Positions 34,160 through 45,056 of a DNA stretch of 64,000 bases are shown one piece after another; the first letter of the stretch is position 1, and each line of letters begins with the position of its first letter. The position numbers and the translations under genes are program-made. Origin of the DNA: Neodothiora populina (Eukaryota); assembly GCF_041146345.1 (NCBI RefSeq), contig NW_027191411.1:1736001-1800000 (forward strand), in the 5' to 3' direction. Under the pieces are notes generated by a model. That model was not told the origin of the DNA. It saw only the letters and a program-made list of their open reading frames with translations, and made no database searches.

Positions 34160-35747
34160 GAGCCTCTCTCGGCTTACTTGTCTTTGCTACCACTCTGCGA
34201 GAGCGAAGAACGACAGGAGAAAGCAGTGAGAAGCATCTATACATAATCCATCTGCTCAATACCCGATGCCATGCATGACTCATTTCAGCCATGATCGCAA
34301 CAATAGGTATCCCAAGATCCCACAACTTCTGCACAGAGAGCACGACATGTGAAGCGGAAAGAAACAACGCCGAAATGGGACGTTCTCCCGAAATCGTGTC
34401 CTCGACAGACCTTCTCAGAATAACAAAAGAGATAAAGTGATCGATTCACCTTGCTTGCAGACCTACGCCTTCACAAAATCTACGCTACAACTACTGTACA
34501 GCTCACTCATCAAGCCGGTGTCTTGTCACTTAGTCAAGCCACACTTTAAGCAAAGAAACGAACAATACGGGGTGCAGCGACCTAACCATAGCCGACTCCG
34601 CTTAGGTTCGCGACGATTCGGCAAGAAATGTCAATGTTACACCACGAACAGAGAGAGATTCGGCCAAGCGAAATTATGGCTGATCCGGGGCAAGAAAAGA
34701 CAAGGGTACAGGTGCAGGGCTAGCTGCTCGACAGGTACATTTTACCTTGCTGGATAACACTGGGCTTTCGAGGCGTTCGGAAGACAGGCTAACCTTACCT
34801 TAAGCGGAAGCTAAATAGTGGCATGCAGCAACTCAGAGAGGGAGAGATTGATTATTGCCTTATCAGCGGGTGGTTGTTGTGTCCTTGGTTTATTTTGTTT
34901 TTGGTCTTGTGCAATCGCCGTAACAGGTCTAAGGATGATCACAGTGATGGACGGGCACAAACAACGACAAATTATTCGATTGTATTGCGTGCTCGTGACA
35001 TTATCGACCGGTTGACCAATTGATTCTATCTGCCTGTCCCAGAGGCGGATTAGCAAGCATGCCCTGGAAACAAAGGGAGGGTGGCGGTTAAAATGACTAA
35101 GATGACTGTCTGTCGGTCGAAGCAGCCAGCAGAACGAGCGCCAAGAAGTCCCTGCTGTGCTGGGTCCCCCCCAATGTCTGAGGCGATTCACAGAGTGTTC
35201 TCGGCCACTCAGATTGCCGATAGTCAGACAAACCTGCAAGGTGAAGGTAGACCCTTCGCCCTCTCTTTTGCAGATGTGAAAGCGACATTCCAACGTTCTG
35301 TGAACCCTTCTTCACCATCCGCCCCGGCTATTGCGACATCATCCGTGCGCATCTCCAAGCTTGCACCTGGGAATCTTGCATCTTGCACATCCGCCGTGCC
35401 TGCCTTAAGGTAGTCTTTTGCCCAAAACAAAAGTCGCATCATCGCATGCACAAGTGACAAAACAGACGTGGTTGATTTTACTGTGGAAAATAGCCTTTTT
35501 TGTCGTTATCATATCCCCCGTCTCGAGAATATTGCACCTGCACTTTTTACACTTGCTATTTCCAATCTGCTATCCATCGTATCTTTTGGACGGACGGCGA
35601 CGCAATCGGGTTGTTCATCGACGTAACTCATCTCCGCACACGATCATCGTCATCTTTTTCTCTTTCTTTGCACCAGACTAGAAACGAGAACAGAGGAGAC
35701 AGGAGACAGGTTCATGAAAAGACCCTACTAAAAAGGGTCAGGCCAGG

Positions 35748-38114
35748 ATGGCGTCAATCAACCCGGATCATTCGCAATCGCAGTCGCAATCGCATTTCTC
35801 AGCCCACACCGATGCTGGCCCCGCCCCGGACACGACGACAACCACTGACAATTACAGAAGACTGTCTCTGCGCCAGTATGAAAGACAACACTCAGACCTC
35901 GCCCTGACTGACGCTCCCAGCTCGGGAGATGAATTTGATCGGGATGCTCTCTGTCGTGATCACGACCATACAGCCCTGAAGTCGCGTCATTCCCATTCTC
36001 ATCTTCACTCGTCAAACCTTGCCCACGCTGACCAAGACATGGCCGCCATGGACAAACAAAACAACATTTGCATCCAGACCAATTCAAAGCATGCCGAACA
36101 CACCGTCGCTCCCTTTCTCGCCAAACACATCCCTATGCAGTACAATCCTGTCGGACACCCACACCAGCCCCAACCCCACGCCGACGACTCCACTTCCACC
36201 AAAGAGTCCAGCACAAAGTTCTGCTACCGTCACAGGCCCGACGTCAAGTGTAGAAGACAGGCCAACGAGCCCTCGATGGAGCAACTGCAGAACGAGCTGG
36301 GAACTCTCTCACAGTCCGACCAGAAGGCCATCTCCCACGTCTGGTCACTCTTCTCTGCCGCCCCCTCAAAACACCGGAACCTGATGCTGCAGGGCGTCCT
36401 GTCGCAATGCTGCTTCCCTCAACTGTCCTTCATCTCTGCATCTGTCCGCGACCTCATCAAGATCGACTTTCTATCCGCCCTGCCACCGGAGCTTGGCTTC
36501 AAGATCCTCTGTTTCCTCGACACCACCTCTCTCTGCAAGGCGGCTCAGGTCAGCCGTCGATGGCGCGAGCTTGCCGACGATGATGTCGTCTGGCACAGGA
36601 TGTGTGAGCAGCACATCGACCGCAAATGCACCAAGTGCGGCTGGGGTCTGCCTCTGCTGGAGAGACGACGCCTGCGCAAGGAAAAGAGACAGATTCAACT
36701 GCGAGCGACCGGTAGGGGCGTCAACGAGTGGTCTCCCATCCTGGAGCCGACATCTCTGCCCGAAGCAGCGGGTTTCGCCGCCGAGACGTTGTCCGCCAAT
36801 GTCGCTTGCACCACCGGGGTCAAGCGGTCTTGCGAAGACTCCATCTCTCCTGAGCCCAAGAAGATCTGCTCGCAGTCGATACGACAAGAGGAAGTGGAGT
36901 CAAAGCCCACCATCAGGCCCTGGAAGGACGTGTACAAGGATCGGTTCAAGGTCGGCACCAATTGGAAATACGGCCGCTGCTCGACGAAGATCTTCCGAGG
37001 ACACACCAATGGAGTCATGTGTCTACAGCACGACGACAGCGTCTTGATCACCGGATCCTACGATTCCACCATCAAGGTGTGGGACATTGAAAGCGGAGAG
37101 GAGATCAGGACACTAAAGGGTCACACGTCGGGAATCCGTTGCTTGCAATTCGACGACACGGGCAAACTCCTCACTGGTTCAATGGACCACACTACTCGTC
37201 TCTGGAACTGGCGTACCGGACAGTGTCTACGTAAGTTTGATGCCCACAATGGTGGCGTCATCAGTGTACACTTCGACTCTCAATATGTTGCGTCTGGCTC
37301 CATGGATCACACGATCCGCGTCTACGACACCAACACCAAGCAGACGTTCTTGTTGAAGGGACACACAGACTGGGTCAACGCTGTCAAGATCGACTCGGCG
37401 TCTCGCACCCTGCTTTCTGCTTCCGATGATTGTACTGTCCGCCTGTGGGACCTGGACACGCGACAGTGCATCAAGGTGTTTGAAGGCCACGTTGGACAGG
37501 TCCAGCAGGTGGTTCCCCTGCCACCGGAGTTTGAGCTTGACGAGGCAGACCTGCTGCCCGGTGACAAGGACGATGACGGATCTTCCACCGCGTCCAGCTC
37601 ACCATTGCATGGGCACGACCATCACCACAACCACCAAGGTGCAGCTGCTGCCTCGAGTCTGCCGTTCTGGCCTTATGACGAGGAGCGTGCCGCACCACCT
37701 CGCTACATGCTCACGGGTGCTCTGGACAGCACGATCCGCCTGTGGGATGTGCATGCGCCTGCTGCTCCGTCGCCGAATTCGTCGTCGGCGGATCCAGGAG
37801 TGCAGCAAGCGCCTCCATCGACGACTGCTTGTCTGCGCACATTCTTCGGACACGTAGAGGGCATCTGGGCACTCGCGGCTGACCATCTGAGGCTTGTGAG
37901 TGGAAGTGAAGACCGCACAGTCAAGATATGGGATCCACGCACCGGCAAGTGCGAAAGGACCTGGACAGGTCACGCGGGGCCTGTCACATGCATCGGTCTC
38001 AGTGACTCCAGATTGGTGACTGGAAGTGAGGACTGCGAGGTCAGAATGCTCATCTTCAATTCTGGGCCTGAGGAGGTCGGCAAGTGTACCGAGAGCCGAG
38101 CGTCGTCGGAGTGA
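35748..38114 (+). CDS. sconB: F-box/WD40 SCF subunit SconB/SCON-2/Met30 (negative regulator of sulfur metabolism)
   Basis: Single-exon 788-aa ORF. Family motifs [34 protein letters not shown]-box [51 protein letters not shown]; multiple GH..WD repeats. Confidence 0.95.
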
Positions 38115-38816: not shown

Positions 38817-41135
38817 ATGGTCGCTCAACAGAAAAAGTCTGCTGGATCAGGCTCGTCTCGCGGTGCCATAAGCAAGAGAAAGAGCGCGGCCAGAACAGAT
38901 CGTGATGGAGACGTGAGCATGGGAGCATTGTCAGCCTCACGCGGAGGAGGAATCTCAAAAGGGGGAAAGTCAAGGGGCACGACGAGAGCCGGAGCAGCAG
39001 CTGAAAAAGGAGGAGCTCGATCGGCTGCACCGCGAATCAATGGCGAACGTGCCCAGCGCGAAATCGCAAAACACATCACTTCTGGCGGCGCCTTGCGAAA
39101 GCGTCCCGCCTCGGCAGACGGTATGAGATAAAACAAGACCACGAACCAGACAAGAAAAGTCTACTCTCGCTGACACGCGACCCTTTTCGTCAGACGTCCC
39201 CGAAGAAATCAGAGTCACCGGCTGGAAGAACAGCAAGGCGGCCAACAACGACGACGGCGGGCTCCATTCCCTCATCGTCTGGATCGAGAAAAAGGCCACC
39301 ACAAAGCACCGGTCGAGCAACAAGCAGGTCAAGGTCAAAAAGGTATGTCCACGGCTTGCATCGAGACATGCATCCGAATGTCTTCTCTCCTCTGGATTGC
39401 ATGCAACACATGCCACCGCTGTTTGATGCGGGGACAAGCCAGACGACATCGCATCATATCGAATCACATGGCCACCATGGCCACCTCAGCCAGAAGCCCT
39501 ACCGGCACTGCTCTTGTCCTCCACTGGGACCACGCCATCGCTGCAACTCACTTGTCTTCACAACGCCAAGACACATATGAATGTTACTGACCACCCGTGT
39601 GCATTTAGTCAAGAGTCGAAGGCGACGATCTGATCATCTCAGTGCCCAAGTCCGATGTCCCGGCCGTGCTGAGGACGAATGGATGGGTGTTCGCTGGAAC
39701 TAACATCAAAGTCGAGAGAGCTTCCGCCCAGGATCTGACTGCGCCTGCACCTGGCTCTACCACACAGAGCACCATTGCCATGCTACAGGGTGTGCTCGCA
39801 AGGCGATACAATGCAGAGACAAAACTTCTAGACCTGAGCGCACTTGGCGCCGATCCGGACCTAAAAGCATCCGCCATTTTCGACTCTCGCTCCACTACCA
39901 GCAAATTCTTCCCGGCCATGATGAAAGTGCTGGACAACCAGTTCGAATCGACGCATGCCAAGAACGAAGCTATAGTCAGTGTCTCGCTCGCCAACAATGA
40001 GCTGCCCAACATCACCGCTGTCACCACTCTGGCTCAAACACTACCACACATCAAGAACCTGGATCTTTCCAACAATGCTTTTGCGAACCTCGCAGCCATC
40101 GAGGCTTGGCGTCGCAAGTTCAGGACTCTTGATCTTCTCGTCCTTTCGCCGAACCCGCTCGAGCAGAATGAGCCTGATTATGCAGAAAAGGTTGTCAACT
40201 GGTACCCAAAACTACGCATACTCAACAACATCCAAGTGAGATCCGACGAAGACCTCGCGAAACCCCTCCACAACACCGACCTCCCCTTCCCCATCCGCGC
40301 GCCCGTGTTTCAGGACGAGGGACAGATCGCCGAGAATTTCTTGCGCAACTTTTTCGCTGGCTACGATAGTGATCGTGCAGCTGTCGCTCAACACTTCTAC
40401 GATGCGTCCTCGGATTTCTCTCTGGCTGTCAACACCCAGGCGCTCAAGGATCCCGCCCACCCGGCGACTGTTCAACCTCAGGAATGGGACCTTTACATCA
40501 AACGCAGCCGCAATCTTAAGAAAATTCAACAGCTGCCTGCTCGCCAAGCACGTTTATACCGTGGTTCGCAAGCCATAGCGGAGGCATGGGCGATGCTGCC
40601 CGTCACCCGTCATCCCGACCTTGCCACTGAAGCTCGGAAGTGGAATATCGAGTGTCAGCTTATGCCCGGCATCCCAGACCCGACAGGCGCTAGTCCCGGC
40701 GGTGTCGATGGCTTTATTATCACCGTGCACGGCGAGTTCAACGAGATTGATGTTCCCACAAACAACGTCACCAAGACTCGATCATTCGACCGTGTTTTCA
40801 CCTTGGGTCCTGGCGGACCTTCGGGTGTGCGCGTCGTCAACGACATGCTCACTATCCGTGGCTATGGCGGCTTCCAGGCATTTGAGCCCGACGAGCCATC
40901 GATACAACAACCCGTTGCCGATGTGGCGGCTCCCGCTGTCGGCATGCCTCCTGGACTGACCCCGGAGCTGGCGGAGCAGATGGTTCTGGAGCTACAGAAG
41001 CAGACAGGCATGATTATAGGGTATGCCACGGACTGCCTTGATCAGGTCCAGTGGGACTTTGATCGTGCGCTGCAGACGTTCAACAGTGTGCGCGCGAATC
41101 TGCCGCCTGAAGCGTTTGTTGTCGTCGCGACCTGA
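38817..41135 (+). CDS. MEX67: mRNA export receptor Mex67/NXF1 (basic N-terminus, RRM-like, LRR, NTF2-like, UBA/TAP-C)
   Basis: Exons 38817-39120, 39194-39342, 39609-41135. Motifs DRDGDVSM, RRYNAETKLLDLSALG, SVSLANNEL..LPHIKNLDLSNN, FLRNFFAGYDSDR, FIITVHGEF..RSFDRVFTL..VVNDMLTIR, LQKQTGM..CLDQVQWDFDRAL..LPPEAF. Confidence 0.93.
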
Positions 41136-42831: not shown

Positions 42832-45056
42832 ATGCTTTCTCCTTTTATGTTTTCCAGTCGTCTTGGTCGCGTCGGTGTGGCTTGTGTTGGGGTTCTGGTC
42901 CTGCTCTTTTTTGTTGTCTCGTTTTATGATGCTTTTGATAGGTATGTTTCTTTTCTCTTTTCGCTCTTTTCTTTTGGTATGAGGAGGTTAAGAGTGTGCG
43001 GTTTCCTCTCTTCTGCCTTGGTGCACAGAGGAAGATGTATGCAAAGAGATTGAGGTATCCCGGAGAGTATGAATTGAGTAAATATGCTTTGTACCGAACA
43101 TGTGGCTCAGAATGACTGATCTGAAGATATAACAATAGAGAATCCTGGGCGCGGTTACATGATATACTACCACATCAGACAGCGTCGTCGATTTCGGATC
43201 ATACGAGCAGCAATCACAATGTTGACAACCTCAAGACCGCCGGCAAGGATGTCACCAAAGAGACATATCTTTCCTTTTCCTCGTCTCTCTTCGACAGGCT
43301 TGAGAGAACAAAGCCCGACCTTTTACCGCTTCATCCAACATCTCCTGCTCCAGCAGTAGTGTACTGGCGAGCGCAGCAAGACAACCAACCACTTCCATCG
43401 CTAATATCAATGACCACGTCTGAAATTGTCACTATGCGTGCTGCACATTCCGACTTTCTCAATCACTACGCGACTGAGCTGTTCGAGAATAGCCAGACAT
43501 TGCCCTTTCGTACTGAAACAAAAGGAATAGTCTCGACGGCGTCTCCTGCTCTTCTTCCAGTCTTTCTCTTGTCTTTGCGCATGCTTCGCAAGACAAACAC
43601 TCGGATACCAGTCCAGCTTTTTGTTCTCGATGTGTCCGAGTACAACGTCCAGGTCTGTGAGACGATTCTACCGAGTCTCAACGCGGAATGTGTACGGCTT
43701 GATTTATTGATAGGAGAAGAGGGCGCGAAGAGAATAGGCAAGGGGTATCAGATCAAGGCTTTTGCGGTCTTGTTCTCGAAGTTCGAGGAGGTTTTGTTCT
43801 TGGATGCAGACGCTTTTGTTTTAAGAGATCCCGAAGATTTGTTCGGTCGTCTTGGCCAACCCTCGTCTGGACCTTCTTCTGGATCTGCCGACGAGGAGCA
43901 GGGGAAAAAGGCCGGGTTGTTGCTCTGGCCGGATTTCTGGGCATCGTCGCAATCTCCCCTTTTCTCTACTATCATCTCTACTAATACAACGGAAAGATCC
44001 AACGAGCAGCAGAAATACCTCCTCGAACACCCTAGCTCAGAATCCGGCCAATTGTTGATCTCGAAACGCTCCCCGTCACAGTCTCTGGCGTTGCTCATGA
44101 CAGTCTATTACAACTTCCACGGCGTCGGGTACTACTACCCATTACTATCACAGGGAGGACCAGGAGAAGGCGACAAAGAGACCTGGGCCGCCGGCGTCGA
44201 AGCCGTGAATCTTCATCTCTCCTCGCCCTCTTCATCTTCTACATCAAATTCCCAAGGGAGGCAAGAATTCACGGCAGCGAGCTACACAATGTTCACCAAG
44301 AGACCAGTCGACACAATTGGCTACTATGAGGATGGCTACGACGCTTTACCCGCAGACGAGTCTGGTAACGCACAGTTCAAGGGAAAGGGACAATATCACG
44401 GTGTGGCGATGTTGCAGTATGCTCCTGCATCCTCTGATCCCATAGCAAACCCCACCGCAGCAGGAAAAGATGCCAACGAAAGAGAAGAAGAATTCACACC
44501 AATGTATCTCCACCACAACTATCCGAAACCGAATCCATCGATTCTGCTCTTTTCTGCTCCCTTGTCTTCGTCGTCGATAACCCAGCAAGATCCGAGCTTT
44601 GGCGCAGCATGCGTGTCTTTCGCCTCTGTGGCTTCTCCGGCATCAGCGTCAGCAACAACTCCATCAGCAGAAGCAGCAGCAGCCGCAGGAGGAACGATAG
44701 GAAATCCCAGAAAACAACAAGTAAAATGCACAGCGCACCGCCGCCTATGGGGACCCGAAGCCTTGACGCGTCAGCGATTCAGTGGCAGCAAAGACAGTAC
44801 CAGCAGCAGCAGCAGCAGCAGCAATGGAAACAAAGTCGACGAGAAAGACAGCAGCGAAGACGTGGAAAAAGAAATGTGGATCGAGATGAGAGGTGTTGCT
44901 TGTGAATATGACTTCGCCTTCACTTCTGCTGCTGCTCCTGTCCGTGGCAAGGGCGTTGGTGACATTAGCAATAGCAAAAGTGAAGAAACCGAAACTTGCA
45001 GACGCGTCAAGGCGTATATGTCTGAGATGTTCGGAACGAAAGACACCGATATGTAA
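42832..45056 (+). CDS. Mnn2/Mnn5-like alpha-1,2-mannosyltransferase (GT71), type II membrane protein
   Basis: Exon 1 42832-42941 encodes a signal anchor (RVGVACVGVLVLLFFVVSF). Intron 42942-43138 restores frame with the 43359 ORF. Motifs KGIV, SLRMLR..IPVQLF, YQIKAFAVLFSKFEEVLFLDADAF (DxD), LLWPDFW, ESGQLLISK, YYPLLSQGGPGEGDKETW, YLHHN. Confidence 0.88.
44801..44823. repeat. (AGC)n coding microsatellite (poly-Ser)
   Basis: cagcagcagcagcagcagcagca inside the GT71 ORF. Confidence 0.9.

Follow-up and report, generated by a model that had tools for sequence, protein, structure and literature searches.

The 64-kb window of the Neodothiora populina genome analysed here carries a MEX67 gene whose exons and introns are listed in Table 1. 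The third exon encodes the Pfam domains LRR_NXF1-5, NXF_NTF2 and TAP_C, which identify the gene as MEX67, and its product is 100% identical to P0002, a protein labelled as coming from N. populina. A weak match to RRM_9 at the start of this exon (profile positions 32–69, E 0.0024) lies below the cut-off. Exons 1 and 2 together amount to 151 codons. The open reading frame upstream of MEX67 (35718–38114, forward strand), which appears to encode an F-box/WD40 protein of the Met30/SconB type, contains a candidate intron of 45 nt, stop-free and in frame, at 35876–35920. The downstream open reading frame (43125–45056, forward strand) presumably encodes an MNN2-type mannosyltransferase.

Table 1. Features of the MEX67 gene of N. 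populina and of its second intron (positions in the 64-kb window).
Feature	Position	Strand	Basis or measure
MEX67 exon 1 (coding part; basic N-terminus)	38817..39120	+	tblastn of P0002, ORF list
MEX67 intron 1, ordinary, 73 nt	39121..39193	+	splice-signal scan
MEX67 exon 2, first part of RRM-like region	39194..39342	+	tblastn
MEX67 intron 2, 266 nt, phase 0, at the KK/S junction common to Pezizomycotina	39343..39608	+	splice signals, orthologue comparison
Candidate decayed remnant of conserved hairpin (weak, post hoc)	39409..39456	+	glocal alignment to intact cores, 7/300 shuffles
In-frame TGA met on intron 2 retention	39424..39426	+	translation
8-bp stem (39424–31 with 39449–56), 17-nt loop with AGCCA (39437–41); candidate rebuilt inner hairpin	39424..39456	+	-8.4 kcal/mol
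9-nt tandem duplication, species-private, in lengthened 3' half of intron 2	39467..39484	+	shuffles, orthologue comparison
6-bp stem TGTCTT/AAGACA, upstream of branch site	39553..39573	+	pair probability 0.5–0.7
MEX67 exon 3: rest of RRM-like region, LRR, NTF2-like, TAP-C/UBA, and stop	39609..41135	+	ORF, Pfam

Intron 2 is a real spliceosomal intron. The boundaries proposed in a first-pass annotation of this DNA are borne out, with GTATGT at 39343, the branch site CTGAC at 39587–39591 and TAG at 39606–39608, and the intron has the GT donor, CTRAY branch site, YAG acceptor and open spliced frame of the U2 type. It is indeed long, but about 3.5 times the typical length of roughly 75 nt rather than the four to five times that had been claimed; the typical length comes from a crude, unvalidated splice-signal scan of the window (shortest candidate per acceptor, picked by hand), in which 21 of 36 candidate introns measured 45–97 nt with a median of about 75. 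Retention reads through 27 codons to the TGA, as had been proposed, and the predicted product of 178 residues (151 + 27) ends inside the RRM-like region. A stop of this kind is not special, being found in frame inside 33 of the 36 introns examined among the matches listed, short ones included. In its own 24-Mb genome the only match to intron 2 is itself. An introner-like element or other repeat was ruled out for intron 2, which has one copy in its own genome and occupies an old intron site.

Orthologous introns were collected in a metagenome scan that returned at least 53 loci. Duplicates (L005, L016, L017, L034, L036, L037 and L053; seven in all), loci in which the junction was cut or not covered (L011, L015, L019, L022, L025, L032 and L049), one locus with no intron (L018) and two unresolved loci (L030 and L044) were dropped, leaving 36 distinct loci among the matches listed; their class labels are approximate, being taken from the nearest named proteins and the tree. 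The nearest named proteins are, for example, from Bacidia for L046 (58%) and from Penicillium for L035 (59–61%), and the one nearest to L046 is 48% identical to N. populina exon 3. The closest locus among the matches listed is L023, with 74% protein identity to N. populina. No further orthologues were found in viral contigs or prokaryote genomes. In L018, the coding sequence is continuous over the junction around position 541, reflecting either intron loss or a transcript contig. In all 36 relatives among the matches listed, a phase-0 intron is found at the same KK/S junction, and on this comparison the position of intron 2 is kept across the Pezizomycotina. Short orthologous introns, which had been named as evidence against a regulatory role, are not the rule: 27 of the 36 listed measure 161–350 nt, one measures 112 nt and eight, all Sordariomycete-like, measure 49–103 nt.

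The first-pass annotation had described intron 2 as structured and as a candidate autoregulatory intron built around a nested hairpin. All 13 sequence segments that it named are present where it placed them. As a whole, however, the intron does not fold better than its shuffles (minimum free energy -66 versus -67.7, z +0.39, with 125 of 200 shuffles folding as well), an outcome that the annotation itself had listed as counting against the idea; whole-intron folding z is an insensitive measure, as orthologues with an intact element also score near zero. Watson-Crick stems of at least 6 bp number 11 against 7.6 in shuffles, a count reached by 25 of 200 shuffles. The nested hairpin reaches -18.4 kcal/mol, whereas the optimal fold of these 105 nt reaches -32; being some 14 kcal/mol worse, with pair probabilities of 0.03–0.05, its predicted helices look like chance. 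The AGACAT/ATGTCT pairing, put forward as a competitor, exists and is in fact favoured over the nested hairpin (pair probability 0.6–0.8). The TGTCTT/AAGACA stem probably forms in N. populina according to the folding model, and shows neither sequence conservation nor stability beyond chance (p 0.73). The tandem duplication is above chance (4 of 500 shuffles) and is present in none of the 36 orthologues among the matches listed.

Several folding candidates were examined and set aside. A hairpin just before the branch site gave p 0.73 in N. populina and a combined p of 0.07 across loci. Sliding-window folding of intron 2 gave a best z of -2.1 in one of 36 windows, which is unremarkable after multiple testing. 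A long-range stem joining the 5' end of the intron to the region before the branch site is plausible by eye and gave p 0.34 in N. populina; its combined p was 0.28 in 15 Dothideomycetidae, and p fell below 0.05 in four of six Leotiomycete-like loci.

In the Dothideomycetidae, the orthologous introns share a common core of about 43 nt that starts 48–78 nt after the donor. The core consists of an outer 5-bp stem (CGGTC/GACCG), a small asymmetric internal loop, an inner stem of 5–6 bp (TCGTT/AACGA) and an apical loop holding the motif AGCCA, with 13–19 nt enclosed by the inner stem. Between an Aureobasidium-like locus (L002) and a lichen-fungus-like one (L046), 37 of 41 core positions are identical, compared with 8 of 38 in the flanks. 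The corresponding figures are 39/41 and 10/39 for L002 and L010, and 37/41 and 6/39 for L014 and L028. A diverged copy is found in the Penicillium-like L035 (26/41), and two Leotiomycete-like loci, L051 and L052, retain the inner stem and loop motif, though unseen by the models described below. Not every core has AGCCA: among those that are intact or partly so, several lack it, L004, L020 and L035 being examples. The short introns of the Sordariomycete-like loci L024, L027, L029, L042, L043, L047, L048 and L054 are without the element, and an Apiospora-like locus (L031) has an intron of 194 nt with no detectable core.

The inner stem has a best-pair probability above 0.4 in 10 of the 12 AGCCA-bearing relatives besides L023, compared with 0.01 in N. 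populina, and paired cells in the core alignment amount to 91.7%, against 19–67% in slid registers. Covariation, which had been suggested as a check, takes the form of two-sided change in 3 of 12 pairs and is not significant, since 27–91 of 500 shuffles reach the five measures applied. Consequently, the conservation could be one of sequence rather than structure, and the hairpin is plausible, not proven. A covariance model (R1) built from 17 loci, with N. populina and L023 left out, scored its training loci at 40–78 bits and found no other significant site in 42 loci, and with a weight matrix trained on 8 loci the core was recovered from 9 of the 20 introns held out, at scores that none of 100 shuffles reached. 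Rfam gave no match to the core in 10 orthologous loci, its one hit falling in an unrelated part of L010. No MEX67-intron element was found in the fungal literature searched, with subscription journals and supplements outside its scope, and two screens for fungal RNAs (PMC5640933, PMC8216456) make no mention of mex67, NXF or export in their main text. Present neither in Rfam nor in the literature searched, the core hairpin is apparently undescribed. A donor-like GT lies inside the core in 16 of 17 aligned loci. A conserved in-frame alternative donor at this GT was rejected: the reading frame of its offset varies (6, 9 and 2 of 17 loci in the three frames), and there is therefore no conserved isoform.

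In N. populina, the element is no longer recognized by these models. The best R1 score in intron 2 is 2.4 bits, with nothing significant across the 64 kb, the weight matrix gives -2.9 (reached by 37 of 100 shuffles; -4.5 and 43 of 100 in L023), and the outer stem CGGTC/GACCG is absent. The candidate remnant in Table 1 escapes the covariance model, the weight matrix and an HMM, which gave no score, and a local alignment of the N. populina intron to a core is matched by 8 of 100 shuffles. The best match to a core lies 73 nt downstream of the donor, within the range of intact cores. The introns of N. populina and L023 are homologous (0/300), and their alignment sets the candidate remnant opposite that of L023, where the 5' arm of the outer stem is kept and R1 gives 7.3 bits at the expected place (E 0.044 within its intron). 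Judged from these alignments, the remnant, faint and identified post hoc, is a probable worn trace of the conserved hairpin. Both introns are long 3' of it, with a run of short repeats in L023. Neither an exact-pattern search nor a DNA search of the N. populina genome turned up the core at another site; both searches are insensitive and thus weak negatives.

A quick, midpoint-rooted tree without L046 pairs N. populina with L023 (SH-aLRT 88), the only close sister locus among the matches listed, and places both in a clade (97) together with the Aureobasidium-like L002, whose element is intact. In the Cladosporium-like loci L007, L008, L009, L013, L021 and L026, the core has eroded separately and by degrees, with its position and the intron length (194–202 nt) staying constant and with 26–28 of 41 positions identical to L041 for the two pairs measured; in all six, the first in-frame stop comes after 48–49 codons. 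Given the tree placement, the decay in N. populina and L023 and this separate erosion, the element is most likely ancestral and would have decayed at least twice. A link between the presence of intron 1 and loss of the core was rejected, as L003 has an intron 1 at a site similar to that of N. populina together with an intact core in its intron 2.

The reading that we favour, with a probability of about 0.6, is that an ancestral control element, which probably served Mex67 feedback, was lost as the intron grew, and that intron 2 of N. populina is its relic. On the evidence of the tree, the ancestor of the Dothideales would have had the element, which would then have eroded in the N. populina lineage while slippage lengthened the 3' half of the intron. 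In the relatives, by analogy with known systems, an export-pathway protein may bind the hairpin and favour retention; the retained message would stop inside the RRM-like region and would probably be removed by nonsense-mediated decay, giving negative feedback. A conserved hairpin some 50–80 nt or less from the donor, in an intron of the gene for an RNA-binding export receptor and with a stop met on retention, suggests the anatomy of unproductive-splicing feedback. In N. populina this control would be lost or weakened, and the intron may be mostly spliced normally, a prediction drawn only from its consensus donor and branch site. The odds are about even that the ligand of the hairpin is Mex67, as analogy with NXF1 (PMC4338338) and with Mex67 on the YRA1 pre-mRNA (PMC2864733) would have it, with a different export or splicing factor only slightly less likely. 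The autoregulatory proposal of the first-pass annotation thus appears to have picked the right intron, since long introns with a conserved non-coding hairpin in the orthologues fit a regulatory role, but to have chosen its features wrongly: AAGACA and the stems that it put forward are private to N. populina.

What decay alone does not predict is that the 8-bp stem of N. populina still encloses AGCCA. A structural turnover could account for this: a new stem would present AGCCA in a loop of similar size (17 nt, compared with those of the relatives), and the same protein would still bind and control retention. Of 500 shuffles in which the motif was fixed, 492 are less stable than this stem and 8 as stable; L023 has a 5-bp stem in register with two pairs that differ from the consensus on both sides, and its outer stem partly survives; and AGCCA is kept in both derived introns. 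Nevertheless the folding evidence makes such turnover unlikely. The test was post hoc, the 8-bp stem has a pair probability of only 0.01–0.07 in the full intron and differs in sequence from the inner stem of the relatives, the L023 stem has a pair probability of 0.0 and, at 184 of 500, is no rarer than expected by chance, N. populina has lost the outer stem, and AGCCA is lacking in several cores that are otherwise wholly or partly intact. A fuller version, in which filamentous ascomycetes possess a CTE-like feedback hairpin of their own in the MEX67 intron, bound by Mex67 and with its stem rebuilt around AGCCA here, seems quite unlikely. On that version, N. populina would offer a natural example of turnover in structure from which the minimal binding signal could be read. 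Outright deletion or replacement of the element, leaving an ordinary lengthened intron in which the apparent remnant is due to chance, would explain why all three models fail and why shuffles match the local alignment to a core as often as they do; it is nonetheless improbable given that the best match falls at the distance from the donor seen in intact cores and opposite the remnant in L023.

The relic reading also has to be set against two proposals in which known RNA classes occupy intron 2. According to the first-pass annotation, the long nested hairpin and AAGACA form a CTE-like site for Mex67. The segments exist, AAGACA is the conserved internal-loop sequence of the CTE (PMC4330393; also PMC7551171), and vertebrate NXF1 has such an intron (PMC4338338). 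At 39568–39573 of intron 2, however, AAGACA is paired (0.5–0.7) instead of lying in an internal loop, it occurs in none of the 36 orthologous introns among the matches listed (chance expectation 0.12 per 266 nt), the hairpin has a probability of 0.05 and its CAAGCC arm overlaps the loop of the conserved fold. Rfam includes a CTE model, and a search with Rfam 15 gave no match at E up to 10 inside intron 2; its two hits over the 64-kb window are at chance level and outside the intron. A CTE-like site in this form is very improbable. The annotation had alternatively proposed a small RNA of the H/ACA type, pointing to the ANANNA box at 39441–39446. The box is present, but it is found in 33 of 37 introns among the matches listed, no ACA follows within 35–110 nt and hence there is no second hairpin-ACA unit, and neither the window nor 10 orthologous loci gave such a hit in Rfam, which leaves this proposal scarcely credible.

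The closest precedent is vertebrate NXF1, where a CTE is found in the retained intron 10 and the short protein keeps most RNA-binding regions (PMC4338338). The gene is orthologous; in the relatives of N. populina the intron carries, closer to the donor than to the acceptor, a conserved stem-loop that is short and has an internal loop; the predicted retention product is truncated as in NXF1; and the donor-like GT of the fungal core recalls the conserved 5' splice site near the CTE loop (PMC4338338, PMC4330393). In contrast, the fungal core has no AAGACA and no Rfam match, its intron lies elsewhere, inside the RRM-like region, so that the truncated fungal product would lose the RNA-binding module which short NXF1 mostly keeps, and the conserved element is present in relatives but probably decayed in N. 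populina; its binding by the export receptor and the retention of the intron are predictions. At best, the fungal element may act as the intron element of NXF1 does, without being a CTE. The YRA1 gene of Saccharomyces cerevisiae, which is autoregulated through its intron, is likewise an mRNA-export gene controlled via intronic elements with Mex67 acting on its pre-mRNA (PMC2864733). It is a different gene, with modular elements and Edc3-mediated decay, and is likened here by description, not by sequence. Screens of Pezizomycotina for intronic RNAs have described conserved hairpins in introns of filamentous fungi, the same broad class (PMC5640933, PMC8216456).

Vertebrate NXF1 is a documented case of an export receptor that regulates itself sequence-specifically by way of its own intron (PMC4338338), and no report of intron-based autoregulation of fungal Mex67 was found in the literature searched. 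Taken alone, the N. populina intron is a worn copy, less exciting than first thought. The 43-nt element, with about 90% identity between fungal classes, provides a defined RNA with which to ask whether Mex67 recognizes a specific target, and N. populina, L023 and the Cladosporium-like loci are natural variants of loss or erosion that could serve as ready-made controls.

Two further features of the orthologous loci deserve mention. A gene model of Aureobasidium subglaciale (P0013) has 17 extra residues at the intron 2 junction that resemble, by eye, the translation of the first 51 nt of the L002 intron (L002 2921–2971). This resemblance implies use of the GT inside the core as a donor, and the extension may reflect either an artefact of gene prediction or genuine use of an alternative 5' splice site. 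The main donor of L002 is weak (GTACAC). A second block, an AGG...CCTT hairpin, is found in none of the 17 Dothideomycetidae, N. populina included. It adjoins the branch site, in the last 40 nt of the intron, in 10 of 10 long introns of Lecanoro-, Eurotio- and Leotiomycete-like loci (L033, L035, L038–L040, L045, L046 and L050–L052, with L050 poorly placed).
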